Shown piece after piece: positions 19,480-60,845 of a stretch of 64,000 nt of DNA. The stretch is from Bugula neritina (Eukaryota > Animalia > Bryozoa), in assembly GCA_964035545.1 (NCBI GenBank), contig OZ037772.1, positions 4,121,538 through 4,185,537 on the forward strand, in the 5' to 3' direction. Both the position numbers and the translations under genes were made by a program. Under the pieces are notes generated by a model. That model was not told where the DNA came from, ran no database searches, and saw nothing but the letters and a program-made list of their open reading frames with translations. How positions within the stretch are numbered: the first letter of the stretch is position 1; the number at the start of each line of letters is the position of its first letter.

Positions 19480-19810
19480 TCCCCTTTACAAATCTTTGAC
19501 AATGTTGAGCAAACAAACAAACAAAAAACTAAACAACAAAATTAAGAGCTGATACATAAACAAGTAATATGATTTTGTTAATAGTATAGTAGATTAGCAT
19601 ATTATGATGAGATTGTCTCCCTAGTTAATTTAGAGTACATTATTTTCTGGGTTTGGGTTATTTAAATTTCTTTTCCTTTATTGTCCGATTGCCTTCGGGC
19701 AGATTAGGTATAATTCTCTAGTACATCTCATATTGTTCATATTTAGCTGGGGTTTTTGTTTGTCTGGACCGTTGCCATTTAACTGGAGTTGGATCAGGGT
19801 TTGTATTCAC

Positions 19811-23704: not shown

Positions 23705-23795
23705 CTTGATATTGTGAACTTTTGTTGTTGATTTAGTTCTGTATTGATTGTTGTCTTTCTTTCCAGCGAACACTTGTATTTTTAGTTTCTTTAAT

Positions 23796-23813
23796 TCCTC
23801 ACTCGGGGCACCA
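23796..23813 (-). promoter_or_regulatory. Element A primer-binding site, elongator tRNA-Met-like
   Basis: TGGTGCCCCGAGTGAGGA directly follows the LTR CA. It is complementary, with one difference, to the elongator tRNA-Met 3' end ..TCCTCACACGGGGCACCA as I recall it. Confidence 0.7.
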
Positions 23814-23947
23814 TGTTTATGTTATGGTTGTTTTATTAGATTCAGAGACCAGTCTAGGAGTTTAGAATAGTTTATTGCTTAAGCTATTAAAGGTCCACTC
23901 TGGATAGATCCAAAAGCACAAACTCGCTCTGATTAATCACATTCATA

Positions 23948-26900
23948 CACAGCATAGTTAAGGTCATCCCCAGTGAAATATCATCTCATAATCTAGTCTC
24001 AGTTCCTAGTTGCTATTGCTCTGTGGGCGGCACGCGTATTGCCTACTTGTCATAATTTAGCATGAGATATAACAATTGCCAACAGACCATGAAATTAGCT
24101 AGGGCTGCACCTGTTCGTATTACAACCATCGCTACAATCTATTGAGCAAGTATGTGGTCATGGCAAGCCTCAGCATCACCTCATTATTATTATTACAAGA
24201 GACCAGTGGTTTGTTTTATGTGCAATGTACTTGATGTACAAAGGAAGATAATTTTCATAACTGCTTTTTTAACAAACAATGTAAAACTATTTCAGATTCT
24301 GGAAGCAAGCTAAATGCTAATGCTAACTCAATGTTCTTCCATTTGGCTAGCCTAATAAAGTTGTTAATAATTACAGGCTTGACTACAACCTTTGAAATTT
24401 TATTGCAGTTATTATTTAAATACTGTAAAAGGCAGTCATAACAAATAATTTAGAGATGCTCTTTTCTCAAAGCATAATGTTTTTAGGCTAGACCATTAAT
24501 CTATCTGTTCACTACCATTGACTAACTTAAAACCAAAATTACCTTCTTCATTAAAATCCTCTTCTAGTTGTAAAAACACTTCTCACTGCTAAACTATTAC
24601 AATCAGTTACAGACTCTGCACAATAGATTAGAATAGTAAAGAGACTTGTATATAAGTTAGATAGTCATGTGCGAGATTTTGTTGGTAGCTGTGAAGGGCA
24701 GATATGCAGAATCTTGTGTGGCCACTTTGAGTTTAGATGGTTTGGGTAAAGGATTTGATTGCTGAAAATGTCTAATAAAGCTAGTAGGTACTTTTGTCGT
24801 CCCATTGTACATTAGTATATAAGCAATAATCAACACTTATTGAAGTGAGTTGGAACTTGGAACTATATAAAAGGTTAGACCATGAGCCTGTGCTTTAAGT
24901 ATATTCTATTTGCTCTCTGCTGTATACAGTCTAAACTTTTAAGGATCCAATCAAGCCTAAATGGCATCTATCTAAATGTCCAAAAATTGGCTATGAGCTG
25001 TATCTTGTTGCCTTGCACTGAGAAATGAATATGAGGCCAGCAAACACCTGGGCTCTTTTGTACTCCTGGCAACTACTATCAATAGTTGGTTATCATAGCT
25101 GCGGAGTGTTCACTCAAGCATGATATCATCGGCTTGTATAGCAACTCAGAGCCAAGATTATCAACTATTTTATGTTTCTAAATTTAGCATCTAATAGAAA
25201 AAGCTGTGTCTAGTTAGACTGACTGACCGACGCTATGCATGCTTGCCCGAGTGAAACATCCACGATGAAAAGTTTTAATCTTAGCTAGACAAATATTGAG
25301 AATTTGAAAAGAAAACCTCCTTAAGATAAAAACAGATGTCCAGTGAATTCAGTTTTGTTTCCAGACTGATAGGTGTCAGTTAATCAGCTCAGATATAACT
25401 AGCAATGCATTATCTAATATTTTGATGCTGCAGTTATAATATTCCATAACAAGAATTGACTTGAGAATTTAGGCATATGCAACAAATCATTCAGTTTTAT
25501 TCAAGTAAATACCAGATAGCCATTGCTCAAGATCACAACGAAAATCAGTTTGGATTTTCAAACATAATAGAATATATATACACGTATGATCAGGCATAGA
25601 AGTAGCAAGTTCAATGAATAATGTGAACATGCAGAAGGTGTAACAGGTGTGTACTATTGTGAAGGAATAAGTCAGGCTTTTTTATAGCAATACATCCTAT
25701 AAATATATTACAAACTTGGGGGAAATAATAGGTTAGTTCCCTAATTACTTTTCTTTAGCAAACATTACGATATTAAATGTCAAAACTGGCTTTGTAAAAA
25801 AGCAGAATTTATAAAAATTCAAGCTGCAAAAGCCTAACTAAAAGGCACATTGCTAGGGTAATTAGTCCTGTCAACTATTAATGATTTTAGTTTTTATATC
25901 CGTGGATAAAAGTCCTATTCTTGCAGGTAGAGTCTTGATATATAGGTGTCAATTGTAGAGTATTATGCTTTTTAAACATAAAAAGATATCGTCTTGCAAG
26001 AGTAGAAGATCAAAAAATCCTAAGAGCTGCAGCTGACATTGAAAAGATGTCCTGATTACACATACTATAGCATTTTGTTGGCAAAACTTAATCCTCTAGT
26101 ATAAGCCACTTGTTTTGGGGCATCATCTAAAAATACAAATAGCAGATTTCTCAATACATTCAAAAGTAATTTTCAACATTTGAAATTTGATTTAACATGT
26201 TCATACACCACAGCTAGTACAGGTACTATTATAGTAGTCTATATTCTGTAAAATCTACCTATACTGTAATCAGATCAAAGCTGCCTGCTGGTAACTTTAT
26301 AAAAGACACAGCTCATAATTACAATTAATATGTTGAATGCTCCCTTGAAATTGTATTTTTCAAATAATTTCTCAGTAGATATGATTGCCATGACCACTAC
26401 AATTTTTTTGAAACATATTATGCTTATAATGTGTTTCAAGTTGGTCACTCAAAGTAAATGTAGTTTGGTATGCAAGTAGTAGTACAATGAGAATTACTAA
26501 ACAAAAGCTCCTCAGTGCAATATTATATTTTCTATGTGCCTACTCAACTACAGAACTTTAAATATTCAAGAAAAAAAAAATAGTCAATAATAAATTTGGC
26601 AATTTTTCTTAAAGTTAATTACATAATGATGAAATGAACGAACAATTTAGATCTAGTTTTACAGTCTTTGTAATAGTTCTACCATTAATGAATGACTATA
26701 TTACTATACATTTTAATTTTTTTATGAATATAAAACTCAATTTTGAAGTTCAGTGATACTGTGCAATACAAATAATAATAAGAATAATAATAATAATATA
26801 GTAATACTAATAGTAATAGTAATACGCATGCAGTATAGGCCTACCGTAATACTAATAGTACAACTATACAAATACTATAAAATTAAATATATTATTGCTT

Positions 26901-29121: not shown

Positions 29122-29549
29122 TAACATAGTATAAATATTTTAAAACAAAGACAAAGCATATTGTAGTGAGTAGTGCAAAGTACAAATACGGGAATCGCCC
29201 TCTCCCTACTCTTGGAATACTTAGCCCCTTATGTAGCAACCAATTAGCAGCTCCGGAAGATATACTTCCGATTCACGTGACACTTCCCGGGTTATTAACA
29301 TTTTATCACGTTGTTGTAAGCGGAGGCTTGAAGGAGAAACATGTATTAGTAGTTGACTGATGTTTAGGATAATTTGATGTGATGTTTATTTTATGCTTTA
29401 TTGTGGATAATAAATATAATTACTCGACAGCTACCCTAGTAATTACTAGCAGGATAACTAACTAACTATACGCAAGTAGATAACTCACGCACAGTAATTG
29501 CACGAATTACTACAGTGGTGGCAGCAGTGGGATCTTGCGTATAGCAGTC

Positions 29550-30500
29550 ATGGCAGAAGACGGCACGGAGCTACCCATTCCACTGAATGAAGGTGAGAGA
29601 GATAAAGTTGATATACCTGAGGAACCAGTGGTGTTAGATGAAGAAGTGAGAATTCCTAGAGAGCATGGTAAAGACAGATACCGGCTGAAGGCGCCCACCT
29701 TCACAGGCGAAGAAGCAGTGGAGCAGTTTATCCAAGAATTTCAAGATGTGATGGAGATTGCACAGTGGCCACCAAGGGTGGCGTTGCTCAAGCTCAGGAT
29801 GGCGCTGAGAGACAAAGCTAAGCCGTACGGAGCGGGACCTGACATAGACGGAATCTTTGCTTCTCTGCGGGCCCGCTTTGGCATCTCCCCCATAGATGCG
29901 CGGGCCCGTCTACAAAGGATGCGGCGTGATCCTCACACGTCGCTACGAGAGGAAGCTGCCACGGTGTACCCACTAGCGCAGATCGCGTTCCGCGATCTGC
30001 CTCCAGTACACCGTGAGAGGTATACTTATGATGCTTTTGTGCAGTCCATCAACGACTTGGTGCTCCACCATCAATTCCAAGCGAGGGGAGTCACCACGGT
30101 CGAAGATGCACTTGCGGTGGGAGAAGCCTACCTCATGGCGACTCATATGCACCGCAACCGCGTGGCCTCCCGCCAGGTGACCACGGAGCACACTACTGCT
30201 CATGCTGAACCAAACGCGGAACCCTCCGCGGTGGCTAATGTAAACCAGATGTCACTAGCGTCAAAAGTTGCACAGATGACTGACATGCAAGATAAACTGG
30301 TCGCCACATTATCTCCCCCAAGCCAGGTAGATACTGCCCGTGAGCCTTGCGGGCCGCAGGTACAATCACCAGGCATGGGGCACAACTTCTGCTGGGGATG
30401 CGGAAGGCCAGGACATTTCCAGAGGAACTGCCCTCAACTCCCACAAGGGTTAAACTACCACAGCCCGCAGATGTTCCCACCTCCTGCGGGCCGTCTGTGA
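29550..30500 (+). CDS. Element B Gag with an intact CCHC knuckle
   Basis: Starts at ATG MAEDG; capsid-like region YRLKAPTFTGEE..WPPRVALLKL; knuckle CWGCGRPGHFQRNC; closely similar to element C Gag. Confidence 0.92.
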   Translation: MAEDGTELPIPLNEGERDKVDIPEEPVVLDEEVRIPREHGKDRYRLKAPTFTGEEAVEQFIQEFQDVMEIAQWPPRVALLKLRMALRDKAKPYGAGPDIDGIFASLRARFGISPIDARARLQRMRRDPHTSLREEAATVYPLAQIAFRDLPPVHRERYTYDAFVQSINDLVLHHQFQARGVTTVEDALAVGEAYLMATHMHRNRVASRQVTTEHTTAHAEPNAEPSAVANVNQMSLASKVAQMTDMQDKLVATLSPPSQVDTAREPCGPQVQSPGMGHNFCWGCGRPGHFQRNCPQLPQGLNYHSPQMFPPPAGRL

Positions 30501-32794
30501 ATCACCCAGAGAGGCCCGCGCGTCTGTCGCCCCGCTGGGCGCCGCACGGAGATGCTGTGAAGTGGCGACCCCCGCGGCAAGTAGGCTCAAGCCACTCGCC
30601 GCCTGGGTCCTCTACGCCACTCCAACACCAACACGGAGCCGGCAGACGGTTGACCTCAGAGCCTGCGAGGGAAACGGTACAGGCGCCACAAGGCGTACCG
30701 CCCCAACCTCGGCAGCTGGTCAATAGTCGTCGCCAACCGTGGACCCCTCGACCTACAGCGAGGGAGGTGCAACCACGGCACACACAGCTGCAGCTACACG
30801 GAAGTAGCTACTTCCTGCCAGGAAAGCTAGCCGGCAAGCCTGCCAACTTCCTCCTGGACTCAGGCTGCACCACCAACCTCCTTAGCCGTCAATTCTTTGA
30901 CACCCTCAGCGCTAAGGTCAAGGACGGGTTGGCACCGTATGAGGGGGATCATGGCACCCTGGCAGACGGGTCGTGCATTCCCTTCTACGGCATTATTGAG
31001 CTAACTGGTTACGTCCGTAACCAGGCCATCCAAGAGACGTTTATCGTCGGGCAGCTCAACGAGGACGCTATCCTCGGGATGCCATTCTTACAACGACACG
31101 GATGTCGCATCGATTTCAGTAAATCTGCGATGATCATGGGCGACAGGGAGCTCGCTTGTGTCGATAAGTTTGGTCGCCCTCTAGCGGGAGCAGTGCAGGT
31201 GGTACGGAGCTGTACTATACCAGGCCACTCCCGGGCTACCGTCCGCTGCAAGGTAGACGGTGGCCAAACCTCTAAGTTGGGAGTTGTCGAAAGTACGCAC
31301 TCGAGAGTCCAACTTGCCCATAGCTTTAGCCGGCTTACGGGACAAGGAGAGATCTCAGTGCAGTGTGTCAACCCCTCTTCAGAGACAGTAGACCTACCAC
31401 CCAGATCCATGCTGGGCCGCTTCCATCCTGTCCAGGAGGAAGCCATTGGGCCGTCGTCGGGAGCTACGACGGAAGGTCCTCAGCAGAGCCCGTCTCAAGG
31501 GCGGAGGACCGTCCCAACCCACGCCTCCCATCCTCCAGGGACGCGTGGCTGCACAGGCAACAGAAAGCGCCAGGCTATGGCTAGGTTGCCACATGGGTAC
31601 AGTGAGGCGTTCCGCCACACGGACCACGACGCCCGCCTAAATAGAGCAGGCTGTCGTGAGGTACCACGGGCGGCGAAGACCGCCCCTGCTCAGCCACTCC
31701 AACAGTGGGCTGACACGCCCCCGGAGGCTGCCCAGAGCCTCCGCGCCAAACCTGTATGGGCTGGTAACATTAGGGAGCTGCCAAAGCTCCAGGAAAGCCT
31801 TCCTGGGGTGGTAGCCGACGTGTACCGAGCGAAACAGGAAGGGCGACGACGCAGTAGTAAACAAAGGCGACAGGGATGCGCCGAGTTACGGCTGTACTGT
31901 CAACGTTGGAGCTCTCTGCGGGTCGGGCCAGATGGTCTGCTGACCATGACCTTGGCCGCCAACAGCAGACAGCCAGCCAGGAAGAGGGCCGTCTGCCCAG
32001 TTGCCATCCGCCGGAAGTTGATACAAGACACCCACGAGGAGACTCACCGAGGAGTCCAAGGGGTGGTCACCAAGCTACAACTCCGGTGGTACTGGCCCAA
32101 CATGGAGCGGGATATCCGGCGCAGAGTGAGACGGTGCAAAGTTTGCCAGACCAACAAGCATAGCCGTCTCCCTGGTGAAGCAGGGCGGCAGACGCATTGT
32201 GCGAAAAGGTCTCGGCAAGCGGAGACTGTCATCCTGGCCGGAAACACCTCCATGACACGTCAGGAAGACTTGGCGAGGCGAGAAAGGCCACTTCCGTCCT
32301 TGAAAGTGCGCCCACCGCCCCCAACGTCAAGCCTGCCATCACCACCACTTCCGGAACCAGAAACGGGTCCGGAAGTGCAAAAACCCCCCGTGGGAGGGGC
32401 TCCGCAAGGAGATACCAACATAGGAACAAACGTCACAAACAGGCTGGAAAAACCACCCGTGAGACATAACAGTCCACAGGTGAGCACACCGCCTCCCACA
32501 GTGACGACGCCTCCAGGACCACACACTAGGCAACTTCCAGCGTGTCTCAGAGACTGTGTACGTGACCGCGGTATAAGCGGCAGTAACGAAAGTCTAGAGA
32601 AGCCTCGCATGGGAAAACAGGCAAAGAGCCGTGGGAGTTGTGAACACCACGGAAATCTCAACTTTTGCCTCGGCGGAATCTCACACGAGATTCATCCGCT
32701 GGAAGTGAAAAGCCCTAGTCACGTTTCACAACCACGCTGTCCGGTCTTTTCCTACGTTGATGCAGTCAAGAGTAGACGTGCCACTAAACAGTAA
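30347..32794 (+). CDS. Element B internally deleted Pol (protease, RT stub, IN HHCC domain, Pro-rich tail), open throughout
   Basis: Protease FLLDSGCTTNLL is present; there is no YxDD, RNase H or DDE core; HEETH..CKVC is retained. In-frame deletion junctions relative to C and E lie near 31700 and 32255. Confidence 0.9.
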   Translation: MRAAGTITRHGAQLLLGMRKARTFPEELPSTPTRVKLPQPADVPTSCGPSVNHPERPARLSPRWAPHGDAVKWRPPRQVGSSHSPPGSSTPLQHQHGAGRRLTSEPARETVQAPQGVPPQPRQLVNSRRQPWTPRPTAREVQPRHTQLQLHGSSYFLPGKLAGKPANFLLDSGCTTNLLSRQFFDTLSAKVKDGLAPYEGDHGTLADGSCIPFYGIIELTGYVRNQAIQETFIVGQLNEDAILGMPFLQRHGCRIDFSKSAMIMGDRELACVDKFGRPLAGAVQVVRSCTIPGHSRATVRCKVDGGQTSKLGVVESTHSRVQLAHSFSRLTGQGEISVQCVNPSSETVDLPPRSMLGRFHPVQEEAIGPSSGATTEGPQQSPSQGRRTVPTHASHPPGTRGCTGNRKRQAMARLPHGYSEAFRHTDHDARLNRAGCREVPRAAKTAPAQPLQQWADTPPEAAQSLRAKPVWAGNIRELPKLQESLPGVVADVYRAKQEGRRRSSKQRRQGCAELRLYCQRWSSLRVGPDGLLTMTLAANSRQPARKRAVCPVAIRRKLIQDTHEETHRGVQGVVTKLQLRWYWPNMERDIRRRVRRCKVCQTNKHSRLPGEAGRQTHCAKRSRQAETVILAGNTSMTRQEDLARRERPLPSLKVRPPPPTSSLPSPPLPEPETGPEVQKPPVGGAPQGDTNIGTNVTNRLEKPPVRHNSPQVSTPPPTVTTPPGPHTRQLPACLRDCVRDRGISGSNESLEKPRMGKQAKSRGSCEHHGNLNFCLGGISHEIHPLEVKSPSHVSQPRCPVFSYVDAVKSRRATKQ
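30449..30491 (+). promoter_or_regulatory. Putative -1 ribosomal frameshift signal (G_TTA_AAC plus stem-loop), element B
   Basis: The heptamer is in the gag frame, followed by a 7-nt spacer and an 8-bp stem GCCCGCAG/CTGCGGGC. The pol ORF is in the -1 frame and the signal is conserved in element C. Confidence 0.75.
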
Positions 32795-32817
32795 TCATTT
32801 ACCGCTCTCATTCCAAA

Positions 32818-33875
32818 ATGTCTTACTATTCTGGATCGAAGGGTGAGTTAATTATGTTTTTGGTACGATAACTAGACTGCATCAGTCAGCTTCAGCTACA
32901 CTAACTAGCAAGCTGGAGATTCGATAATGATAAACAGTGGTGGGAATACACGTCGACTTTGATTTTAAATAATCTGCCATAGCGAGTGTGTTCTCCATCA
33001 ACTATTCATTAGCCTGAATCTCACGAGTGTAACTGAACAGAGTACCGGTCAGGCTGTACACGCCGACGGTACCTCAGTGTATAATCTTTAACACTGCTAC
33101 TCTTTCAGATCACACTCGAGTGACCACCTCCCGGTCACGGGACCAGCCAACTTCTCTGCCTATGGAAGAGGAACCTGTAATGGAGAATGGCATACCCGTG
33201 GTGCTCTGTCGACGACACCGCTGGGTGTCACCCACGACGGAAAGGAGAATTGAGGAAGCCTGGGGACCCAGCGGACCCCACCGAACCTGCCAGGTCTGCT
33301 TTGAGGAGTGCCCGTCACACCGCTCCCTGCGTCTACATGTAGACGCCCATTTTCTACTCCACTTCTGTCCGTGCAGGTTCCACGACGTATGCCCGTATCC
33401 CGTGACAGTCCATAAGCTGAGCTGCTTCGCTGGAGAGAACCATACTGTCGATGAGGACAGTTTCCCCCAATACCTATATACCATCAAGCCAGTCATCAGG
33501 AAGGCTATCACCCTGGCCGCACTAGCGTCAGGGTTCCACGTACTGCTGCTATCCGCCCGCCATAAGTCCCCTATGGTTCAGGGCCCGTCTCCTACCTCCG
33601 TCAACCCTAGCAACACCCCCGAAGTAGAAAGAACAACAATACCCCCTCTAACAGAGACTACTACAACCCCGCCAAGACCTAGCCAGCTGGCTAATGTAGA
33701 AGAGCGGCTTGTAAGACTACAAGCCGAGTTCACACAACTTGCCCCTGACTTGCTGGATATGACGACAGGTCTATACCAGTTGAAGGACTCAGTGGGGCGA
33801 CTGAAGAGGCGGCTACGTGCCCGACAGGCTCGACACAGAGCACGCTCGCTACAAGAGTCGGAGTCCACCCAATGA
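32818..33875 (+). CDS. Element B ORF3: two-exon C2H2/C2HC zinc-finger and coiled-coil protein (263 aa; exons 32818-32842 and 33109-33875)
   Basis: ATGTCTTACTATTCTGGATCGAAGG|GTGAGT...TCTTTCAG|AT joins in phase 1 to give MSYYSGSKDHTR. Motifs C-x2-C-x12-H-x3-H and C-x-C-x12-H-x3-C, with a C-terminal heptad-like helix. Element C has the same structure. Confidence 0.85.
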
Positions 33876-34844
33876 GTATGCCTGGGGTAGGCACCTTTCG
33901 TTGAGCTGTATTTCGTCTGGAAAGTGACGAGTGCTCCGACATTGGCCCGCGTGCTGGTAAGCACCCTCTCTCTTTATAGCTGATTAGATGTGTGTGATCG
34001 ATCACCCTGTTTACTTCTGTATATAAATGTTGTCGTGCTCAACTATTTCTTTTCTTCCTCTTTGTGGGTTTACTTATGTATGTTTTTCTTCTTGGATTAT
34101 TGTATAGTTTTTCATTATGTGTTTTTTTTATTGTGTTATCAGAAAGTAGGGCTTTCTGCTGGGGGGGGGGCGGTGTAGTGAGTAGTGCAAAGTACAAATA
34201 CGGGAATCGCCCTCTCCCTACTCTTGGAATACTTAGCCCCTTATGTAGCAACCAATTAGCAGCTCCGGAAGATATGCTTCCGATTCACGTGACACTTCCC
34301 GGGTTATTAACATTTTATCACGTTGTTGTAAGCGGAGGCTTGAAGGAGAAACATGTATTAGTAGTTGACTGATGTTTAGGATAATTTGATGTGATGTTTA
34401 TTTTATGCTTTATTGTGGATAATAAATATAATTACTCGACAGCTACCCTAGTAATTACTAGCAGGATAACTAACTAACTATACGCAAGTAGATAACTCAC
34501 GCACAGTAATTGCACGAATTACTACAATATTCTGCATATCATCAACAATGGCTATCAGTAATAAGTACAGCATAATAGATTATTATTATAAATGTATTTA
34601 TACAAATAGTGACAGTAATACTAAAAGTAATATTTTTAGCTATAATTGGTATCCACCAGTTTGCACTACAATTATGAATTTTAAATTACATACAACTTCA
34701 ATTTAAAACTAAAAGTAAGAGTGAAACGCTTAATAGTTATTACTATAACTATGACTATTAAGATTAGTATAATATGGTAAAATGTGAGACTGAGTACCAG
34801 TATAAAACTGATATTTAACCTATTTGTAGATTCTAAACTTTTAA

Positions 34845-35170
34845 ATTAGACCTAATAGTAGTAGCAGCAACCTTGCAGTAACTTCTACAGTTAATCCTAG
34901 TTCTATCATCTATCAGTATCACTATGATTATCATTATGATTATGATTATTACTATCAGTATCACCATCACCATGACTTCACGTCTAAAACTATGAGTATC
35001 AGTATGACTGACTGTGAGAGTATCACCACCACTATGAGTGGTGGTGATAGTGAGTATCACTATCACTACAATACTTAATTAGTTACTTATAGTTATACTT
35101 ATACTATGAGTTACACTACTATCACTATTAGTATCACTACGACTATCACTATCACTATCAGTATAACTAT
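34845..35170. repeat. Low-complexity (ACT/ATC/AGT)n tract that continues at 42675-42727 after element C
   Basis: Degenerate trinucleotide repeats on both sides of element C. Confidence 0.75.
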
Positions 35171-35763
35171 TGTTATAATTTTCAGATTTAGGGTTGATGT
35201 GCTATCCAGAGAGTCTATTTATTTACTATAAAACTGCACCAGGATAAGTCGAGTGAACGAGTATATTTTACACACAATTATACATTATAAAAACGATACA
35301 TTATTTCCAGACAAGTTACACATCTAATCTATTTCACACTCTAGCTTCGACTGAGTTAGCAGCGGGAAACTACAATTGCTGTTAACTATCAACTACGCTA
35401 ATTGGTTATCCATTGTTCCGGGTCAATTGCGCGACCCTACATGTTGTGCTGCTGGTAGTTCCACGAACCACCACACCGCCCCCACCAGCAGAAAGCCATC
35501 TTTCTGATATATATATAAAAAAAACATTCATTGGTAACCGCATACATCAGTGGACAAAATAATACATAATATACAGGAAGAGACATAATAATAGACAGAA
35601 TCATTATAACGATCCGTTGCATACAATTGGCCAGCTGTAGATAGACGAGGAATACTAGCTAGCTGTGGTGTTAGACAGGGGATAACCTGTTAAGCAGTCA
35701 AACATTTACATGACATCTTGGCTTCTCCCAAGAGGCGGAGTTGGAGTACTCCGGGTAGTCTAA

Positions 35764-36841
35764 CTAGAGTCCTTGTTGGGCACGCCGGTGCTTGGCTTGG
35801 CATGTACGCAGTTTCCTTTTCATACGGCATACGGATCCCTTTAGCTGGAAGAGTCCTGTTGTAGTGTTAAGTAGATCTGGTGCCAGCTGGGTGAACTCTT
35901 CTTGTAATCGTAGGAGGTGTTCTTCTACTGTGGCTAGGCGTACTGGGTCTGGGGACGGTGTCCGTCTGCGGCGCAAGGGTGGACTGGGGGACCTGGTTCG
36001 TCTCTTCGTCAGAGTAGGGGAGATCTCTCCTTCTTCTGGATATGTAGTTTCTTCGGGGGTGTATGTAATTTGAGGGCGGTCAGACACCAACGGAGATTGT
36101 TGGCGGGCGTTGTCTAACACACGTTGGAACCCCGAGGACAGAACGGCTAATAGCATGGCCTTCTTCACCAGAGGTCGTATAAGTGTGAGGAACTCCGGGT
36201 ATAGCTTAGCGTCGACCACGTAGTTTTCTCCAGGGAAACAGCCCGCCGCTCTGTGTCTGGTGACGGGGTAGGGATACACGTCATTGTACCCGCAGGGGCA
36301 GAATGTTAGTAGGAGATGAGCATTGACGTGTAAATTAAGGGAGCAATGAGAGGCGCAGTCTTCACCACAGATCTGGCATCTCGTCCGTCCTCTGGACCCC
36401 CAGGCTGTTTCTATTTCTTCTTCTGTTTGTGGAGACACCCACCGCCAACGGCGGCGTAGTGGCTCAGGCCGGTCACCACTAGCATACTCCTCTGGATACG
36501 GAGCGGGAAGTGTTCTATCCCGTACCCTGGTTGTAGCGGGTCGAGTGTAATCTGAAAAAGTTTCAACAGTGTTAATACAGTACACTGCTGTGTTGTCAGC
36601 TTGAACAGCTTGGCAACTCCTAATTCAGTTACCTCGTAGAGATTTATGGTAGTGAATAGTCAGATAGAACACGTATTGCAATGAGATTATAAAAATCTCT
36701 AAGTCAAACTGAGTTCTTACTACGGTATTTCACTAACCTATCTCCAGCTCGATTGACTCGGTGAGTCAGAGCTGAGCGATGCAATCTAGTTTCGTATTAA
36801 GATATAGTTAACTCACCCCACGATCTGTTGTCGTAAGACAT
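35764..36841 (-). CDS. Element C ORF3: two-exon zinc-finger and coiled-coil protein (270 aa; exons 36817-36841 and 35764-36551)
   Basis: ATGTCTTACGACAACAGATCGTGGG|GTGAGT...TTTTTCAG|AT gives MSYDNRSWDYTR. Motifs CQIC-x12-HVNAH and CPC-x12-H-x4-C, then RRTRSPSPPLRRRRTPSP and the helix RLATVEEHLLRLQEEFTQLAPDLL. Confidence 0.85.
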
Positions 36842-36865: not shown

Positions 36866-39800
36866 CTACTGCTTAGAAACACGTCTACTCCTGACTGCAT
36901 CAGCGTATGAAAAGATCGAGCAACGTGGTTGGGGTGCGTGATTAAGACTTTGTGCACCCGGCGGATGAATTTTGTTTCTATTTCCGCCGATGCAAAAGTT
37001 GATATTTCCGTGGTGTTGACAACTCCCACATTTGCTCGATTCTTTTCTCGTACGGTTTTCCCCTAGACTTTCATGCGTGCCGCTTTTAACGCAGTCACAT
37101 ACGAAGTCCTTCAAGTATGCGGGGGGTTGCCTCGTACGCTGTCCCCTTTCTAGGGGGGGTGACACGCTTGCCGGTTCGTTAGTAGGGGCCTCTAATGGCG
37201 TCTCTACTTCACCGTCAGCGGTCACCTCTTCTTGTTCTCCGGATGGAGCCCCTCCCTCCGTGGGGGTTTGCACTTCCGGAACCGGCTCGGTTTCTGGAAG
37301 TGATGGAATTAGACTTGGCGGTGGCGGACACGCTTCTGTTGACAAAAGCTGCCGCTCCTCTCTCACCAAGGTTTCTTCCCGCGGTATGACCACTTCGTAT
37401 TCAGGTCCATGCCGCCGTCGCCCGCGCGTTGTTGTCTGCCTCCTGGGCTCTAACAACGGGGGGGCTTCTCCCACTCCGTCGGGGCTAGCCCAATACGGTT
37501 TCAAGCGAGACTCGTTCTGGATAGACACCTGTCCTGAGCGCTCGATCTTGTACGTATGATTGGGCATAGCCTCGACGACCACGTAGGGCCCTACGAACTT
37601 AGGCTTCAGCTTATCAGCCTGTCCGCGGCGCCTACGGTAATTGACCATCCACACCTTATCTCCCATTTGATAGAGAGGTGGTTCATCGGAATCTTCGTGC
37701 CGCACCTTCCACTGCTGTTGGCGCAGTATATCGTGTGCGGCCTTCATCCGTTCCACTAGTTCACTGGCATACTCGTGGACTGAGTTATCTTGCTCTGGAA
37801 CGTGATAGGTGAGATGGTCAGGGACACGAGTCTCTCTCCCGAGCATCAAGAGGTTTGGGGTCTCACCAGTACTGGTGTGTGGGGTGCTACGGTATGCACG
37901 CATGACTTGCGGCAACACCGTATCCCATTCCTCTTGACCTCGTCCAAGGAGGAGACTCCGGAGTGCTTCACCTAGCATCCGGTTGTTGCGCTCCACCACC
38001 CCGTTACCTTGAGGGTGGTAGGGGGTGGTCCTGCTCTGATTTACTCCCCAGAGGTGGCAAAGGTCGCTCATCAGTTGAGACTGGAATTGAGCGCCTTGAT
38101 CAGAGTGTATCTGTTCGGGGAGCCCAAAATAACAGAATACATGTTGGTCTAGTGCCCTGGCCACTGTTGGGGCTGATGCATCTGGGATAGCCAGAGCATC
38201 CGCCCACCTAGTAAAGTGGTCGGTTAGTACTAGGATCCAATTATTGCCTCTGGGGGTCAGGGGCATGGGTCCGACCAGGTCTACAGCGACTACTTGCCAG
38301 GGCCTACCAGCGTATAGCCTCCGCCGTCCTGCTTCACCAGGGGGGCGGCTATGCTTACTGGCCTGGCAGATCTCACACTGTTTGACTCTGAGCCGGACAT
38401 CACGCTCCATTTGTGGCCAATACCACCGAAGTCGTAATTTGGACATCACTCGCTTGACCCCTGCGTGGGCCTGCTTGTGAGTATCCCAAATCAACTCACG
38501 GCGGATGGCTGTGGGGCAGACTACCCTCTTCTTTTCCGGGTGTCTGCCGCTGGCAGCTAGAGAGATGGTTAGCAACCCATCCTGCCCGATCCGCAGCGAG
38601 TCCCAACGCTGACAGTATAGCCGGAATTCGGCGCAACCCTGTCGTATGCGTTCCTCGCTGGGTCGTCGCCCTTCCCTTTTGGCCCGGTATATGTCTGCCA
38701 CGACTCCAGGCAGCTCTTCTTGGAGCTTTTTCAGCTCTCGAACATTACCGGCCAGTACAGGGTTGGCGCGGAGGTTTTGTACATCCTCCGGGGACTCATC
38801 AACTCTTTGCCTGAGTTGACCTTGATCCCAGTCAAACGGTGCTCCGTGGTGAGCCAGCATCTCCAACTCGCATCGCGGGGACCTCCATCCCTCCTCTCGA
38901 TGTTGAGACACTGTTTGCAACCTCCGTCAGGTCGGCGACTCAACCCATCTGCATTGCTGTGTCTCTTGCCCGGTTGATGTTCGATCCGGTATGAGAATTC
39001 AGCTAGGATTTCGAGCCACCGGGCGACCTGACTAGAGGGCTCTGCTCTCCTGCACAACCAGATCAGCGAGGCATGATCCGTACGCAGCCGGAACTTCCTG
39101 CCGTATAGGTATGGTCTGAAGTGCTTCACTGACTTGATTACTGCCAGCAGCTCCTTGCGGGTAGTGCAGTAATTTCGTTCAGCGGGTGAGAGAGACTTGC
39201 TGTAGTAGGCTACTACTACCTCTCGGCCTTCCTGCACTTGTGACAGCACAGCGCCAACATTTTGGTCACTGGCGTCCGTGTCTAGGATGTACTCCAGAGT
39301 GGGGTCTGGGTAGGCCAAGATGGGCGCCGTTAGTAGGCAGCCCTTGAGGCGGTCGAACGCTTCTTGTTCGACTGGAGTCCACTGCCATGTCACTCCCTTT
39401 GCGGTGAGCCGGTTTAACGGCTGGGCTATGCCCGCAAAGTCTGGTATGTATTGCCTGTAATACCCTACCAGCCCCAAGAAAGCCCGGAGTCCGGTCAAGT
39501 CTTGGGGGGTGACCCAGTCTTCTACTGCCCGTACCTTTTCGGGATCCGTTGCCACGCCGTTTCGACCGACAACGTGCCCCAGGTACTTGACCTCCGGCTG
39601 CAATAGAGCGCACTTGGAAGGTTTGAGCTTAAGACCGGCACCTCGGAGTCTCTCGAAAACCTCCTGCAGAGGACTGACATGTGTCTCGAAGTCTGGAGAG
39701 ATTACGATGACATCATCGAGGTAGACCAGCAGTGTCTTCCAATGGAGTCCGCTAAGGACTTGTTCCATCAGCCTCTGGAAGGTGGCTGGGGCGGAGGTTA

Positions 39801-41436
39801 ACCCGAAGGGCAGCACCCTCCACTTCCACAAACCGTCCCGTGTGATAAACGCCGCTTTCTCTTGGGCGTCGGGACTCAGAGGAACCTGCCAATAGCCGCT
39901 TAGCAAGTCTAACGTACTGAAGTACTTGCTGCCGGCTAGGGCGTCCAATGACTCGTCAATACGAGGTAGAGGGTAGGCGTCCTGTATGGTTACGCTATTG
40001 AGTTTGCGGTAGTCCACACAGAACCGCCAACTGCCGTCTTTCTTCCGGACTAGTACGACTGGCGAGCTCCACGCACTATGGGCGGGCTCTATCAGTCCCC
40101 GGTCCAGAAGATCCCGTACTTGTCGGCTAACCTCCTTCTCTTTCTCCGGCCCCAGCCTGCGTGTGGGCTGCCGGACAGGGACTGTCCCTGCAGTCAGCGG
40201 TATTTCGTGTCTGACAATTCCAGTCAGTCCCACGTCATGCTCTCCGCTGCTGAACACATCACCGTAGTCGCGTAGTAACTTAGCCATAGCTTGGCGTTCT
40301 CTGTTACTCGCGCAGCCGCCACTGGCTGTTTCGTATAACTCCCGGAGATGTGTTGGGACTGCCCCTCGTCCCTGAATAGGGCACTGAGGGAGTGCCTCTG
40401 TCGCATCACCCAGCGACGGGCCTACGTCTCCCTCCTGAACAGAGTGAAAACGGCCCAGCATCGACCCAGCCGGGAGCTTGATAGGCTCGGTAAAGGGGTT
40501 GACGCACTGCACTAAGATCTCCCCTTGCTCAGTCAGCTGATTCAGACTGCTGGCAAGTTGGATCTTTTCGTGCGCGCCTTCAACCACCTCGAGTCCAGAG
40601 ATCCGGCTATTATTCACCCTGCAGTGAATGGTAGCCCGGGAGCGGCCTGGTATGATACGGTTGCGTACCACTTGCACACCTCCCACTAAAGGGCGGCCGA
40701 ACTTGTCGACGCAGGCGAGTTCCCGCCCGGACATCATCATTGCAGATCTGCTAAAATCTATGTGACATCCGTGCCGTTTAAGGAACGGCATCCCGAGGAT
40801 AGCATCCTCCTTGAGCTGACTGACGATGAACATCTCTTGGATCGTTTGATCACGGACTCGTCCCGTCAGCTCAATTATACCATAGAAGGGAAGGCACGAC
40901 CCGTCAGCTAGGGTGCCATATTCCCCTTCGTATGCCTCCATCTCGCCCCTGACCCTAGCACTGAGGGTGTCGAAGAGTTGGCGGCTTAAGAGGTTCGTGG
41001 TACAGCCCGAATCAATGAGGAAAGTAACAGCTTTGCCTTCCAGTTTGCCGGGCAAAAAATAGCTGTTCCCATGGGGCTGCACCTGAACTCTCTCTTCAGG
41101 CCTTACTCTCGCAGGGAGTACCTTCCTCGCTTTGGGTCGCGAAGAAGGTCTCTTAGGGCGGTGGTAGGTAGGCCTCGGGGGTGCCGAGGCTAGATTCTCA
41201 GCTACCTTTGTGTGCTCCCATCCAGATTCTTGGACTTGTAGCCTTGTGAATCTGTTGTGAAGGAGCATAGAAAAGGCAGCCGCGGGGCGAAGCCCCTTGC
41301 TGGTCCGTCGTGGCTGTTGCCACTGTTGGTTGCCAGTACGCGGTACCCGTCTGGGTGACCTGCGTTTCTTCTTCCCTGGGGGTTTCATCGTCGGCCCGCG
41401 GAAGGCGGGAACATCTGCGGGCCGCGGTAGTTTAAC
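36866..41436 (-). CDS. Element C Pol (PR-RT-RNase H-IN) with a 1-nt frameshift at ~38877-38880
   Basis: FLIDSGCT, YLDD and DTDAS lie in ORF 38731-41496; HKQAH..CEIC, VDLVGP, HSDQG, VERNN and GPY lie in ORF 36866-38920. The frames join if one base is restored in the G run, by comparison with element E. Confidence 0.92.
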
Positions 41437-42338
41437 CCCTGATTTAGGTAGGGACAGTATCGGCGGAAATGTCCTTGATTTCCGCACTCCCAGCAAAAAC
41501 TGACTGTTTCTCCTTGTGGTGGCGCCGATGGCCGCATGGGCTCAGGGGCGGTACTCACTGGGGTTTGTGGTGTCAGTGTTGCTATCAGCTTGGCTAGCAT
41601 GTCCGTCAATTGAGTGACTTTTGATGCCGTCGCCAACTGAGACACGGCAGCCGCGGCGGGAGTTTCCTCCCCTTGTCCTGCGGCCGTGTCCGCGCGGTCT
41701 ATCTCCACTTGACGGGAGCTCCCGCGACTTTTATGCATTTGATTAGCTAGGAGGTAAGCTTCCCCCTCAGTCAGAGCATCTTCAACGGTGGTGACTCCCC
41801 TAGCTAGAAACTGGTGGTGGAGACCCAGATCATCGACAGATGCTATGAAAGCGTCGAGGGTATACCTCTCGCGGTTGACTGGGGGCAAGTCGCTGTATGC
41901 GATCTGTGCCAGCTTCATGACCGCAGCGGCATGCTCCCGCAGCGGGGTGCGGGGATCACGCCGCAACCTCTGCAATCGGGCCCTGGCATCTGTAGCAGAG
42001 AGGCCAAAGCGGGCCCGCAGAGAAGCAAAGATATTATCAATGTCTACGCCCAGCCCATAGGGCTTGGCTTTGTCCATCAATGCCATTCTAAGCTTCAGCA
42101 AGGCCACCCTAGGGGGCCACTGGGCGACGTCCATTACGTCGCTAAACTCTTGGATAAATTGTTCCACCTCCTCTTCACCCGTGAAGGTGGGCGCCTTTAA
42201 CCGGTAACGGTCCTCAGCTAGTTCTCGCGGAACCCTTCGCTCTTCTACTACATGGTTAACAGGCATTGTCTCTACAGCATTGTCTCTACGCTCACCTTCT
42301 ATTGCCGGTGGTTGAGTTCCAGCATTCTCAGTCTCCAT
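41385..42338 (-). CDS. Element C Gag with CCHC knuckle
   Basis: 317-aa ORF with CWECGNQGHFRRYC; GTTAAAC slippery site at 41430-41436 followed by a GGCCCGC/GCGGGCC stem. Confidence 0.93.
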   Translation of the reverse strand: METENAGTQPPAIEGERRDNAVETMPVNHVVEERRVPRELAEDRYRLKAPTFTGEEEVEQFIQEFSDVMDVAQWPPRVALLKLRMALMDKAKPYGLGVDIDNIFASLRARFGLSATDARARLQRLRRDPRTPLREHAAAVMKLAQIAYSDLPPVNRERYTLDAFIASVDDLGLHHQFLARGVTTVEDALTEGEAYLLANQMHKSRGSSRQVEIDRADTAAGQGEETPAAAAVSQLATASKVTQLTDMLAKLIATLTPQTPVSTAPEPMRPSAPPQGETVSFCWECGNQGHFRRYCPYLNQGLNYRGPQMFPPSAGRR

Positions 42339-44766
42339 CTTGGATGCACAATCCCACCCCTGCCACCACTGTTATAATTTTCAGATTTAGGGTTGATGTG
42401 CTATCCAGAGAGTCTATTTATTTACTATAGAACTGCACCAGGATAAGTCGAGTGAACGAGTATATTTTACACACAATTATACATTATAAAAACGATACAT
42501 TATTTCCAGACAAGTTACACATCTAATCTATTTCACACTCTAGCTTCGACTGAGTTAGCAGCGGGAAACTACAATTGCTGCTAACTATCAACTACGCTAA
42601 TTGGTTATCCATTGTTCCGGGTCAATTGCGCGACCCTACATGTTGTGCTGCTGGTAGTTCCACAAACCACCACACTATGACTATCAGTATAACTATGACT
42701 ATCAGTATTAGTATGAGTATCAGTATCCGTCTTCTTGGGTTAGGCAAATTTTCAACTTCTGCGCTGGGATGAAAATTCAACTAATTTTATTTTCAAAGCT
42801 CACGTTTAAAAAACTACAGTGCAAGCAAAAATTATCTAATATCGATGCTTAAAAACAAAAAGAAAACCTATCCATTTCAATTCAACTAATGCCTTGGGCT
42901 TGTAGCTTACTCAATGTTGCCTAACAATTTACAACATCCGCTGCGTCTTTATTGTTAGCTAGGGAACCAAAAATCCGAACAGCCTACATAACGTTTTTCA
43001 GACTAGGGGGCTTGTTTTTTGTGTTATGTATTAGAATCTTTTCCACCGATCTTCTCAATTTGTTTTTATGACCATGGGCAAGGCCAAGGTTTCTCCCGCG
43101 GATCTGCAGCAAAAATGAAGAGGATTGTTGTGAAACAGAAGTTGCATTTGTGTAGTTTATCATTAATATTATTATTAATGATATTAATTATTGATAATAT
43201 TAATTATTATTATTAATCTCTTGAATTTTTTACTCATAATGATATGATTATGTCTATTTATTATTATATCCATATAATTACCATAATATCAATTATAATG
43301 ATACTCATAATCATAATGATAATGATAGTTAGTGTTACCTCCAGTTACCTCCAGATTACGATCATGCTAGACCACTAGGTAGCAGAAGCGGCATGCCTCA
43401 TATGTTTACGGTTGGTCAGAAAGTAAAATGCATACAATAGATCATAAATTGGTTGCAGTGTGTGTTGCATTATTGTTTATTAGTACGGGTAAGTTAACCT
43501 GTCAATGTTTAGATTATTCTGTGTGTAAATTAGTCTTGCAAGGATTGTTCCCTTTAAGGTCACGGATTGTCCGTGGCAGGAAGCTGTTATAATAGCAGTT
43601 ATTATTGGTGCTGACTGATCTTGGCTGTCCTAGTGTTTGGGCCCTAGTTTGGATAAAAACTTTCCGAGGTATTTATTAGTTCGTCATACGCTGCAGAGAG
43701 TGCTGGGTGATATTCTTCCTTTTGGCGTATCCTCATAAGGAGTCTTAGTCGTTGAGTTCTTCTTCTTTCATCGAGGGCGGCCTCGTTAATGATAATGTCA
43801 ATCACCAATGATAATCATAGTCATAATGATTATTATTTATATTTATAAATTATTATTAATATTGATATTATAATTTTATGTTTATATTTTTGAGTTATAC
43901 TTTAATAACAATATAACTATAATGATTGTCATATATCGTTGAATTTGACATTTGATTTGTCATTTGATCAATATTGACATCGATAATTTGATAATAAATA
44001 TTATTAACATAATGATAATTTTCTTGTTGGTGTATTTTAAATAATAAAATCTTAATAGTAATAGTTGTAGCATAAGTATAACTTTAAGTTAACGTCTAGG
44101 CACGTCTTGAGTTTGTGATGTAACTAAATCAATATCAAGTTCAAGTTGTGATACCCTCATGATTATGATTATAATGATCTTTGTACTTTATAGAGCATGA
44201 TTACTCGATATTTCTTACTCTTATTCTAAAACAAATGTTCATTTTCATACTTGTGTTGTTATTAAACTATATTAATAGCTAAAGGCCTGCTTCTAGTTTT
44301 GAATGTTTAAAACGTACTTAACATACTGCACTTGCAGCTCTATTTTTCAAAATTCATCCTTCAGTTGATAATGCTATATTACTAGTAACTTCTGCTACTT
44401 AGTAAGAATTTGCATACCATGCATTAAATCAACTTCATTGCAACTTTGAGCAAAGTAAAGCTACATCTGTTATACTAATACCTTGGTGATGTTTTCTGGC
44501 ATATCACTTTTTTTGCTAAGAAAGTTTCTACGGCCATGTAATTGCCAACTTGTAGAAGGCATGCAGTACTAACTTTTCTCTTTCGTTTATTACAGGAATA
44601 TTTGACACTATCTTCCTATTGCTTTCAATTTTTTGTATTCATATTTTTTTAGATTTGTAATTACGACTACACTACTGTTGATAGGTTTGGATTTTCTCCC
44701 ACATTTACAATGACAAAAATGGATTTGATTTTCACACTGAGTCTGATATGCTGTTTAGTTGTTTAG

Positions 44767-45837
44767 CTGTGAAGGAACTGTTAGCTGCGGCACAAAACCA
44801 CTTGAGGAAATTCTCCTGGCAGATGCACCCTCAAGGCAGATGGAAAATCGTCTCGAATCAAACAAGTCGTTGCGAAATGATTTGAATTTTTCAAACAAGT
44901 GTGGTAACCAAACCTTGCACCTACTCAATGAAGTGTCTAATAGATCCATGTGGGCCTTCAAAGTGAGTTGGCTAACTTGTTTGATATTTATTTTTATTCA
45001 TTTGACATCTAGTGAAGCTATTTGCAGTATGATTTGGTCGCCATGTTGCAACTTAGAGTAACTATAACTTTGAGATTGTAAGCTAAAATCTACACAATAT
45101 GTTCATTAAAACTGTTCTCTGCTTGTCACCAATTGCAATATTAACTTTCTATATAACCCTGGATTATATTAGCTCAGTATAATTTTTTAGGCTCAGTTCC
45201 TTAGAATATAGTGTTTTATGGTTAGTTCAACTTAGCATGTTATGCAACGTCTGCTAATTTTTGGATATATGAGACATTTTTAGAGGTGTGAGCTATGATC
45301 AAAAAGTCAATCTTTTTTTACTTTGCTCTCTGCTATTCTTTCACCATATTCTACACTATTTTACCTTATTCTTGCACACCATTTTTTACATTACATTACA
45401 TTCTTATTTTTTACCTACTCTTACACCACATTCTACCTTATTTCACCTTATTCTTGCACCATATTCTACATTATTCTACCTTATTCTTGCACCATATTAT
45501 ACATTATTCTACCTTATTCTTGCATCATATTCTACATTATTTCACCTTATTCTTGCACTATATTTTATATTATTTCACCTCTTTCTTACACCATATTCTA
45601 CCTTATTCTTAGACCATATTCTATCTTATTCTTACACCATATTCTATTCAAGTGTTGGATGCTTGGGAAAATCCACCGACCGGATTTTTCACTAGAATAC
45701 TCAACTGGGCTGGTGACTACCAGAAGTGTGTTGCCATCAGATCTACCTACGGAGAGAATGATGACCCGAGTATGATGCTCTATCAGGGGAGGTACTGCTC
45801 CGAGATACACCCTAGCATGGCGGCCAATGACGGACAG
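44767..45837 (+). pseudogene. NRF-6 (nose resistant to fluoxetine)-like N-terminal domain fragment, two exons (44767-44962 and 45653-45837)
   Basis: ..SMWAFK| and |LDAWENPPTGFFTRILNWAGDYQKCVAI..YQGRYC match the NRF-domain pattern WAxKMLDAWGKxPxG..NWxGxYxEC..GxYC. The exon phases are incompatible (0 vs 1), conserved Gly residues are replaced, and no acyltransferase exons follow. Confidence 0.75.
45343..45647. repeat. Intronic minisatellite, ~33-bp unit
   Basis: TTCTTGCACCATATTCTACATTATTTCACCTTA-like units, which produce the spurious ORFs in all three frames. Confidence 0.85.
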
Positions 45838-60023: not shown

Positions 60024-60845
60024 ATGGACGAGAGAGTAACTTCAATGGAAGGAGGTGAGCGAAACATTATTATAGGCCCTCTCGGAGCTGGAGAGGAGGT
60101 ATATAGGAACACATTAGAGGTTCCCGTGTTCACGGGCCTCGAGGATGTTGAACAGTTCGTTCAAGAGTTCCGTGAAGTTGCAGCCATTACAAGATGGCCG
60201 CCAAGAGTAACTCTTACGAAACTGCGGATGGCACTGACGGAAGAAGCCAAGCCGTACGGGTGGAAGCCTAGCGTAAACGGGATCATTGCTACACTACGGG
60301 CCCGTTTTGGCATGCCCGTTGCCGTCGCCAAGTCCAGGCTGCGAGGATTACTCCGCAGGACATGTACACCGCTTCCTGACCACGCCACTCTGGTGCAGAG
60401 ACTGGCACGGACCGCGTATAGCGATCTGCCAGAAACACACAGACGGCACTACACATTCGAAGCCTTTGTACAGTCTCTCAACTCTTTGGACTTCCACCAC
60501 CAGTTACAAGCCAAGGGAGTGACCACGATCGAGGCTGCAATCCAGGAGAACAAGGCCTACGCTGGAGCCGAGCAACTCTATAAGACGGAAGAGGCCACTC
60601 CCCAGACCTCTAGGGAACCAGACCATCCGATCCGCATAGCTGCCGCGACCATTCAACCCCCCATAGAGATGGAGATAAGCCGCTTGATGACTAGACTGGG
60701 ACAATTGGTGGCGACGATAACATACAACCACTCAAAGAAGAGTAAGAGGACGGCCGCAAAACCCCCCAGACCTATGATGCGACGCTGGGAAAGCGTCAAC
60801 CAGGGGCACCGCCACCCGAGCGGCTCAGTTGCTACAAGATTATAG
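60024..60845 (+). CDS. Element E Gag-like ORF with a decayed zinc knuckle
   Basis: Aligns with B and C Gag (PVFTGLEDVEQFVQEF..WPPRV..LRARFG), but CWECGNQGH reads RWESVNQGH and the rest is deleted. Confidence 0.85.
   Translation: MDERVTSMEGGERNIIIGPLGAGEEVYRNTLEVPVFTGLEDVEQFVQEFREVAAITRWPPRVTLTKLRMALTEEAKPYGWKPSVNGIIATLRARFGMPVAVAKSRLRGLLRRTCTPLPDHATLVQRLARTAYSDLPETHRRHYTFEAFVQSLNSLDFHHQLQAKGVTTIEAAIQENKAYAGAEQLYKTEEATPQTSREPDHPIRIAAATIQPPIEMEISRLMTRLGQLVATITYNHSKKSKRTAAKPPRPMMRRWESVNQGHRHPSGSVATRL

Follow-up and report, generated by a model that had tools for sequence, protein, structure and literature searches.

Two related Ty3/Gypsy retrotransposons of the bryozoan Bugula neritina, here called B and C, carry a third open reading frame, ORF3, in the env slot after pol. 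ORF3 is a real, selected, non-env accessory gene whose RNA is likely spliced. Both elements lie in a 64,000-nt stretch of contig OZ037772.1 (assembly GCA_964035545.1, forward-strand positions 4,121,538 to 4,185,537), referred to below as the window. The gene is intact in both copies, and their comparison shows that it is under purifying selection. It encodes a zinc-finger protein with a predicted C-terminal coiled coil, which we tentatively read as a nuclear regulator of the long terminal repeat (LTR) of the element that carries it.

An earlier note, made from the letters of the sequence alone, had described in both elements a short mini-exon with its own ATG, an intron with a TTTCAG acceptor and a long open exon 2. 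Every coordinate and size of that layout holds (Table 1). The motif GGTGAGT occurs once per element, at the ORF3 donor. Coding use of the intron was ruled out by its stops, which number five to eight in each sense frame and four to nine in each antisense frame and close all six. One homolog, P0024, reads through the intron region. In the B intron, a short hairpin at 33075-33096 is predicted to form over a TTAAC motif, a candidate branch point.

Aligned over 257 columns, the exon-2 proteins of B and C share 49% of their residues (E = 4e-79). Over 247 aligned codons the silent difference pS is 0.81, which is saturated, and the replacement difference pN is 0.35; the coiled-coil part gives 0.90 and 0.22, respectively. 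Differences are distributed over the three codon positions as 103, 78 and 164 (positions 1 and 2 versus 3, P = 2e-14). Intervals on dN/dS were biased, most resamples being saturated, and pS and pN alone were used. That level of protein identity alongside saturated silent sites shows purifying selection; the earlier note had taken a dN/dS near 1 as counting against the gene, and the B-C comparison lies far below it. As also noted earlier, ORF3 is retained in the stripped-down element B, where it stays open although the integrase core, RNase H and reverse transcriptase (RT) are lost. ORF3 inside a Gypsy element is shown for B and C alone, because locus scans of metagenome contigs, viral contigs and prokaryote genomes returned no ORF3 locus.

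Two probable splice routes into ORF3

The single donor of the earlier note proved an incomplete picture, which missed a second donor in gag. Each of the three related elements in the window (B, C and a further relative, D) has a phase-1 AG/GTGAG site (slash, cut site) shortly after the gag ATG, at 43 nt in B, 43 nt in C and 31 nt in D, and their gag N-termini differ despite this common donor. AGGTGAG is unique in C (7.5 kb) and in D and is one of two occurrences in B. Joined to the ORF3 acceptor, the gag donor gives an in-frame product of 269 aa in B and 276 aa in C. A homolog from a 5,320-nt contig, P0019, consists of 14 gag-like residues, an Asp and then exon 2, and it matches the predicted B product at 17 of 20 residues across the junction. 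An env-type subgenomic splice from the gag donor to ORF3 therefore probably exists, and P0019 shows, at the protein level, the env-like trait of a third frame that follows pol and draws on a donor close to the start of gag.

The mini-exon route is supported by sequencing run X2. One contig of this run skips 266 nt with GT..AG ends (32841>33108), exactly the B intron, at a joint depth of 843, compared with ~50-120 for diverged single pieces. It is the sole GT..AG joint among the best 15 of 179. X2 is probably genomic DNA, judging from its longest contig (59 kb), the depths of the diverged pieces and a coverage that extends to every one of the 30 bins, the flanks among them. If so, several genomic copies would have lost the B intron precisely, which is the expected trace of reverse-transcribed spliced RNA. 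Of the two junctions predicted in the earlier note, the one in B is thus seen in a contig that is probably DNA, but neither is crossed by a contig of RNA. For translation to begin at the mini-exon ATG, an RNA must start close to the pol end, or re-initiation must occur there, and we propose a putative internal promoter at that place, for which the Tor3b/4b elements offer a precedent. The mini-exon was also considered as an internal exon after gag and rejected: an AG stands just upstream of it in C and none does in B, and the join would be out of frame.

Together, these features support splicing of ORF3 by two routes, as far as sequence can tell. Several points weigh on the other side. The X2 joint comes from a single contig whose shorter side is just 28 nt long and 85% alike, and sides below 30 nt may stem from repeats. 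The C junction is not among the best 15 of 96 joints (lowest depth 105), and neither junction of the gag route appears among the best 15 of 96 or the best 15 of 179. In the RNA run X1 (share 0.07), no contig spans either ORF3 junction; the single 219-nt contig found lies within C exon 2 and is no evidence of expression. None of 221 proteins starts with the mini-exon peptide, and of the 16 homologs with a readable exon-2 start, one, P0019, has the gag fusion, known at the protein level. No internal promoter was identified, and the flat codon-position pattern of the pol tail (described below) does not differ significantly from the rest of pol (P = 0.11).

A zinc-finger and coiled-coil protein

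AlphaFold predicts a compact domain of ~130 aa (residues ~22-152; predicted local distance difference test (pLDDT) 93.8, predicted template modelling score (pTM) 0.86), then a disordered Pro-rich linker and a 59-residue helix. The Pro-rich linker and the basic C-terminal coiled coil of the earlier note are both present, the latter now as a model. The domain combines a C2H2 and a C2HC finger, and each of its eight zinc ligands is kept in 75-87 of 87 aligned sequences; those of finger 1 (C-x2-C-x12-H-x3-H) are found in 82, 85, 82 and 84. A conserved Trp precedes the ligands and a Val-Asp follows them. Finger 1 had been called canonical, which is right for its ligand spacing but not for its core: a Cys replaces the aromatic residue in B and C, where 39 of the 87 homologs have Phe. 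Its helix carries Arg or Lys at position 2 in 69 of 87 sequences and at position 5 in 75.

The domain is apparently an undescribed family. PF00096 matches neither B nor C in Pfam; at a threshold of E 0.1 it is hit by 14 of the 87 members, with E 0.0012 as the best value, and scores, where seen, lie below the curated cut-off. No Pfam or NCBIfam family rises above cut-off in the scores seen, and a sequence search of the PDB gave generic C2H2 and coiled-coil matches only. The family zf-POGZ, hit by one of nine proteins at E 0.09, was dropped. Foldseek returned no match at E 0.001 or better in PDB or among the viral models of BFVD. With VIA, the best Z for the domain is 3.7, and the full model retrieves generic helices. 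A lack of fold match does not show a new fold. The top ESM Atlas matches are unnamed clusters (0.95-0.96, 135-155 shared features) and serve as leads only. The characterised retrotransposon frame that the earlier note had allowed for as a counter-explanation did not turn up in the Pfam, NCBIfam, PDB sequence, VIA or Foldseek searches.

Modelled in three copies, the helix is predicted to assemble into a coiled coil (score 0.65, compared with 0.02 for the best control; contact agreement at least 92%, pLDDT at least 79), the copy number being our choice and the prediction one that may reflect memory of solved coiled coils. Of 29 eukaryotic proteins whose structures were solved as pairs, 17 attain the mark applied, and of 30 single chains none does. 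A coiled-coil-like tail is found in 66 of 118 homologs of at least 210 aa, compared with none of 118 shuffled sequences, by a crude score of our own. The tail is basic, with five to nine Arg or Lys in 20 residues in all 43 near homologs, of 49, whose tail is readable.

The protein is not Env. The maximum 19-residue hydropathy is 1.56 for B and 1.51 for C, in both cases inside the folded domain, and 13 of 206 homologs reach 1.6. The absence of an evident signal peptide or env-like anchor, as first proposed, agrees with this: no membrane helix lies outside the globular domain, although no dedicated predictor was used. No F-type or gB-type glycoprotein is listed in the Pfam, Foldseek or VIA results. 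An atypical envelope or fusogen, for which the env slot, the gag-donor route and the predicted three-chain coiled coil could speak, is accordingly the least credible alternative and very improbable: neither route gives a hydrophobic N-terminus, the hydropathy maxima sit within the fold, the zinc ligands are of intracellular type, and viral models provide no Foldseek match at E 0.001 or better.

Of the ~200 relatives found, those with a name are all uncharacterised proteins of bryozoans. The searches yielded 49 near homologs, 90 representatives after clustering at 50% and 81 matches to a profile of distant members. For the tree, 160 domains that passed a hidden Markov model filter were reduced to 39 rows; it was rooted at the midpoint only, so it does not determine the direction of exchange between host and element. 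A clade of multi-copy sequences with good support (100/99) holds both B and C and stands apart from the annotated bryozoan proteins. The latter include XP_067940964.1 and XP_067944745.1 of Watersipora subatra and KAF6037488.1 and KAF6040923.1 of Bugula neritina. Like ORF3, they have the ~120-aa zinc domain, once or twice, and often a C-terminal coiled coil; unlike it, they are longer, at ~24-32% identity, and each may be a host gene or a mobile copy. Some of these relatives are probably host genes.

Several other sequences with the domain were seen. P0105, P0212, P0057 and P0096 have one or two copies of it and are probable host genes; P0105 (Watersipora) and P0212 (Bugula) share, by eye, a further N-terminal region. 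The proteins P0137-P0208, of ~365 aa, make up a large second subfamily with a conserved Met start of its own; domain and coiled coil are as in ORF3, apparently within a single open frame. The multi-copy group around P0137, with 62 members at 62% identity, is presumed mobile. In P0036 and P0060, pol-tail sequence runs straight into the ORF3 domain, probably as a result of deletion. None of 5,954 candidate proteins of 971-2,770 aa is a fusion, which is weak evidence.

Possible functions of ORF3

Our tentative preference is for a nuclear regulator that would activate its own LTR, or counter its silencing, at the DNA level. In this scheme, one acceptor after pol would be fed by two phase-1 donors, at gag codon 15 and behind a private ATG mini-exon. 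The gag-donor RNA would be an env-type subgenomic RNA from the LTR, and the mini-exon transcript, from an internal promoter near the pol end, could supply protein early, before the LTR is fully active. The ~130-aa zinc domain, working as one unit, and the self-associating C-terminal helix are predicted to make a multivalent oligomeric binder. Through its basic face, finger 1 may contact DNA of the matching LTR or of the internal promoter, while nuclear import may fall to the basic tail. A zinc domain, a Pro-rich linker and a coiled coil, in this order, are the layout of DNA-binding factors of the THAP and BEAF-32 type. The non-autonomous B family would keep ORF3 yet borrow RT and integrase, perhaps because each family needs its own matching factor.

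Divergence within the elements is a weak pointer to the LTR as target. The most diverged parts between B and C are ORF3 exon 2, the LTRs (53%) and gag (~40%). Fourfold sites of exon 2 are identical at 21 of 72 positions, compared with 86 of 141 in pol (P = 1e-5), and the intron, at 69% identity (shuffle mean 49%), matches the pol level. In its divergence ORF3 thus resembles the LTR and not the intron, a pattern that stronger silent-site constraint in pol would also give.

DNA binding by finger 1 faces difficulties of its own. Helix position 6, a base-reading position in canonical fingers, is Val or Leu in 72 of 87 sequences, which makes canonical DNA reading doubtful, and in C neither position 2 nor position 5 is basic. 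Overlays of the finger pair on tandem DNA-binding fingers by VIA (Kaiso, 5vmu, Z 3.6, root mean square deviation 3.0, 57 aligned; SALL4, 7y3k, Z 3.4) are weak, below the level that the tool treats as meaningful.

An alternative is a post-transcriptional regulator of Rev or CERV type. Made from spliced RNA, such a protein would assemble as an oligomer on the unspliced RNA of the element and either permit the export of that RNA or keep it from being spliced. We consider this rather unlikely, and action on LTR DNA more likely. Near-consensus donors in the genomic RNA appear to be used, so that unspliced RNA must escape, and both the basic tails of all 43 readable near homologs and the non-canonical finger position 6 would suit an RNA binder. 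The intron folds better than its shuffles (z -3.2 in B, -3.5 in C), with a long stem and an acceptor hairpin common to both. A precedent is CERV of the Caenorhabditis elegans Gypsy element Cer1, the product of a spliced RNA, which has the N-terminus of Gag and is required for export (PMC10309623). The intron, however, is ordinary in its fold, z falling below -3 in 5 of 19 tiles of B and 7 of 28 of C, and its identity equals that of silent sites in pol, so that extra constraint is not shown; as a specially conserved response element it is unsupported. The 14 compensatory pairs in the intron come from two sequences only. Patterns resembling nuclear export signals occur only inside the folded domain, Rfam gave no matches, and intron-less B copies seem to have multiplied, for which the intron would not be essential in cis.

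The predicted three-chain coiled coil with its basic tail could belong to a factor that acts in the particle or in integration, either as a trimeric chaperone of nucleic acids or as a tether guiding the integration complex to chosen sites. LINE-1 ORF1p has a similar outline of trimeric coiled coil and basic tail, and the targets of B and C (ATAT and ATAG) are alike. Integrase alone could explain a 4-nt AT-rich preference, though, Gag already has a zinc knuckle, and a separately spliced gene, possibly with an early promoter, fits a regulator better; we hold this alternative unlikely. Less probable still is a captured host zinc-finger gene, a passenger or a host benefit with no part in element replication. 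Annotated genes of both Bugula neritina and Watersipora subatra do contain the domain, the N-terminal region common to P0105 and P0212 would suit host genes, and the P0209 cluster has four near-identical members from three sources and looks host-gene-like. Yet P0105 and P0212 are just 24-26% identical to the C domain, B and C sit away from them in a clade of multi-copy sequences, and both purifying selection inside elements with saturated silent sites and retention in B point to a benefit for the element. A recent capture, which the earlier note had kept as a way for its reading to fail, does not agree with relatives this distant.

Returning to the LTR regulator, a bolder form of it is possible though doubtful: a 'complex' Gypsy lineage with its own zinc-finger transcription factor, from an undescribed domain family, and a foamy-virus-like double route, co-evolving with its LTR and exchanging the domain with the host genome. 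The mini-exon would then serve an early phase from an internal promoter and the LTR-gag splice a late one, and in the host the same domain would form a bryozoan gene family.

Few regulatory proteins of LTR retrotransposons are described, CERV and sORF1 being the Gypsy examples considered here. A conserved zinc-finger ORF3 in the env slot, kept by an element without RT and integrase core, would point to a self-controlled step of the life cycle, such as escape from silencing or RNA export. Its confidently modelled domain, outside any Pfam family, links mobile elements to probable bryozoan host genes, and one protein, one LTR and two splice junctions make a small testable system.

Carrier elements and known systems

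Five LTR elements (A-E) lie in the window, whose DNA is eukaryotic and rich in AT. B (29162-34526, +) and C (42674-35171, -) are related and recent Ty3/Gypsy insertions, in which LTRs, primer-binding site, polypurine tract and target duplication are all present. The pol order protease-RT-RNase H-integrase (PR-RT-RH-IN) is found in C; B keeps just protease and the integrase zinc finger in that order, and tblastx of its pol against C jumps over C 40170-38817 and 38255-37142. The B primer-binding site is putatively of the tRNA-Leu type. An empty copy of the B target, with a single ATAT, lies at 19423-19478; the target sequence (29122-29161 / 34527-34545) also runs uninterrupted there, at the inner edge of the LTR of element A. 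D ends at the window edge ahead of its ORF3 slot, and elements A and E have no trace of the ORF3 zinc domain.

Table 1. Features of elements B, C and D in the window.
Element	Feature	Position	Strand	Remarks
B	Target duplication ATAT, 4 nt	29158-29161 and 34527-34530
B	5' LTR, 353 nt, TG...CA	29162..29514	+	99.7% identical to 34174-34526
B	Primer-binding site	29516..29533	+	Directly after 5' LTR
B	gag with zinc knuckle	29550..30500	+	PF00098, E = 4e-4
B	Putative alternative first exon of ORF3, first 43 nt of gag	29550..29592	+	Phase-1 donor AG/GTGAG at 29593
B	pol remnant, single open frame	30344..32794	+	Protease, integrase zinc finger, C-terminal tail (Pfam)
B	ORF3 mini-exon, 25 nt	32818..32842	+	Own ATG, 23 nt past pol stop; A at -3
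B	ORF3 intron, 266 nt	32843..33108	+	GTGAGT...TTTCAG; donor GTGAGTTAA
B	ORF3 exon 2	33109..33875	+	Spliced product 263 aa, no internal stop
B	ORF3 exon 2, zinc domain	~33195-33563	+	Followed by Pro/Thr-rich linker
B	ORF3 exon 2, coiled coil and basic tail	~33675-33848	+
B	3' LTR	34174..34526	+	G-rich polypurine tract just before
C	Target duplication ATAG	42675-42678 and 35167-35170
C	5' LTR, 305 nt	42370..42674	-	99.0% identical to C 3' LTR
C	Primer-binding site	42368-42351	-
C	gag	41385..42338	-
C	Predicted alternative first exon of ORF3, first 43 nt of gag	42296..42338	-	Phase-1 donor at 42295
C	pol, PR-RT-RH-IN	36866..41541	-	Frameshift near 38.9 kb splits it into two frames (Pfam)
C	ORF3 mini-exon, 25 nt	36841..36817	-	Own ATG, 24 nt past pol stop; A at -3
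C	ORF3 intron, 265 nt	36552..36816	-	Donor GTGAGTTAA, TTTCAG acceptor; matching acceptor-proximal hairpin at 36567-36587
C	ORF3 exon 2	35764..36551	-	Spliced product 270 aa
C	ORF3 exon 2, zinc domain	~36465-36097	-	Followed by SP/TP- and Arg-rich linker
C	ORF3 exon 2, coiled coil	~35952-35776	-
C	3' LTR	35171..35475	-	Polypurine tract just before
D	First 31 nt of gag and phase-1 donor	60024..60062	+	Donor at 60055

The closest pair of elements differs by region: B and C in gag, C and D in a pol segment, B and D at the LTR end (regions compared: 29162-29514, 42370-42674 and 59690-59962, plus gag and pol of B, C and D). All three look like mosaic elements. In B and C, the start of pol lies in the -1 frame relative to gag and overlaps its end for 157 nt (30344-30500 in B; 41385-41541 in C), with no standard slippery heptamer in the overlap and with GGGTTAAACTACC common to both. 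A tile in B gag, 29917-30182 (+), folds far better than its shuffles (z -7.1) and is a candidate packaging or regulatory RNA structure. The last 85 pol codons (B 32528-32794, +; C 37132-36866, -), which include a Cys/His cluster, are retained in B despite its lost integrase core; their identity is near flat by codon position (64, 63 and 58 of 85), which hints at a DNA or RNA element. Elsewhere in the window lie two unrelated Gypsy-type elements, at 19291-23956 (-) and 46885-51844 (+), and tandem arrays at 53397-54294, 45301-45642 and 59502-59710 with periods of 26, 33 and 17 nt. Element A has a single unbroken gag-pol frame of 1,336 codons and 144-nt LTRs.

In foamy viruses, the gene of the transactivator Tas (PMC7828637) lies near the 3' LTR and has an internal promoter. 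The same expression logic is proposed here for ORF3. Unlike ORF3, Tas belongs to a retrovirus with env, and no sequence or fold match between the two was found. The Tor elements of Oikopleura express a third frame in one of two ways: Tor3a splices from donors at the gag start, and Tor3b/4b use an internal promoter located within pol or behind it, so that both ORF3 routes have precedent (PMC4402516). In contrast to ORF3, the Tor product is a membrane Env, and the routes are split between Tor groups; here, both apparently occur in one element, the downstream one with a coding mini-exon and an intron.

Non-Env frames after pol are known from another lophotrochozoan group, the bdelloid rotifers, whose LTR elements carry family-specific ORF3s of GDSL esterase, DEDDy nuclease, coiled-coil and transmembrane types (PMC5408684). 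The bryozoan ORF3 differs in having no enzyme domain, and the terms 'zinc finger' and 'intron' occur zero times in the main text of the rotifer report. Another Gypsy-lineage accessory protein, sORF1 of the Drosophila MDG1 group, is a nuclear protein of ~110 aa and unknown function with a predicted helix-turn-helix, encoded upstream of gag and made from a separate short, unspliced transcript (bioRxiv 10.1101/2025.03.14.642691). A survey of env-carrying Gypsy elements includes bryozoan ones with a gB-type env and the order gag-env-pol, and 'zinc finger' occurs zero times in its main text (PMC13524379). We found no report of a C2H2/C2HC coiled-coil ORF3 in a literature search whose scope excluded most subscription journals, Repbase and Dfam.

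CERV of Cer1 resembles ORF3 in several respects. It is a Gypsy/Ty3 accessory protein made from a spliced mRNA, with a Gag-shared N-terminus, a Cys-rich zinc site, a predicted oligomeric state and a leucine zipper (PMC10309623). As to the traits of a Rev or CERV factor, ORF3 shows a predicted oligomer, a basic tail and a splice junction in probable DNA only. CERV differs by its description: it has 517 aa and five exons, a C4-type loop, and, besides H and M domains, one that resembles a G protein (PMC10309623). The ORF3 proteins have 263-276 aa with C2H2 and C2HC fingers and are encoded after pol, and VIA lists no G-protein fold for the ORF3 model. We conclude that spliced accessory genes in Gypsy elements were already known, and that the protein family encoded by ORF3 is apparently new.

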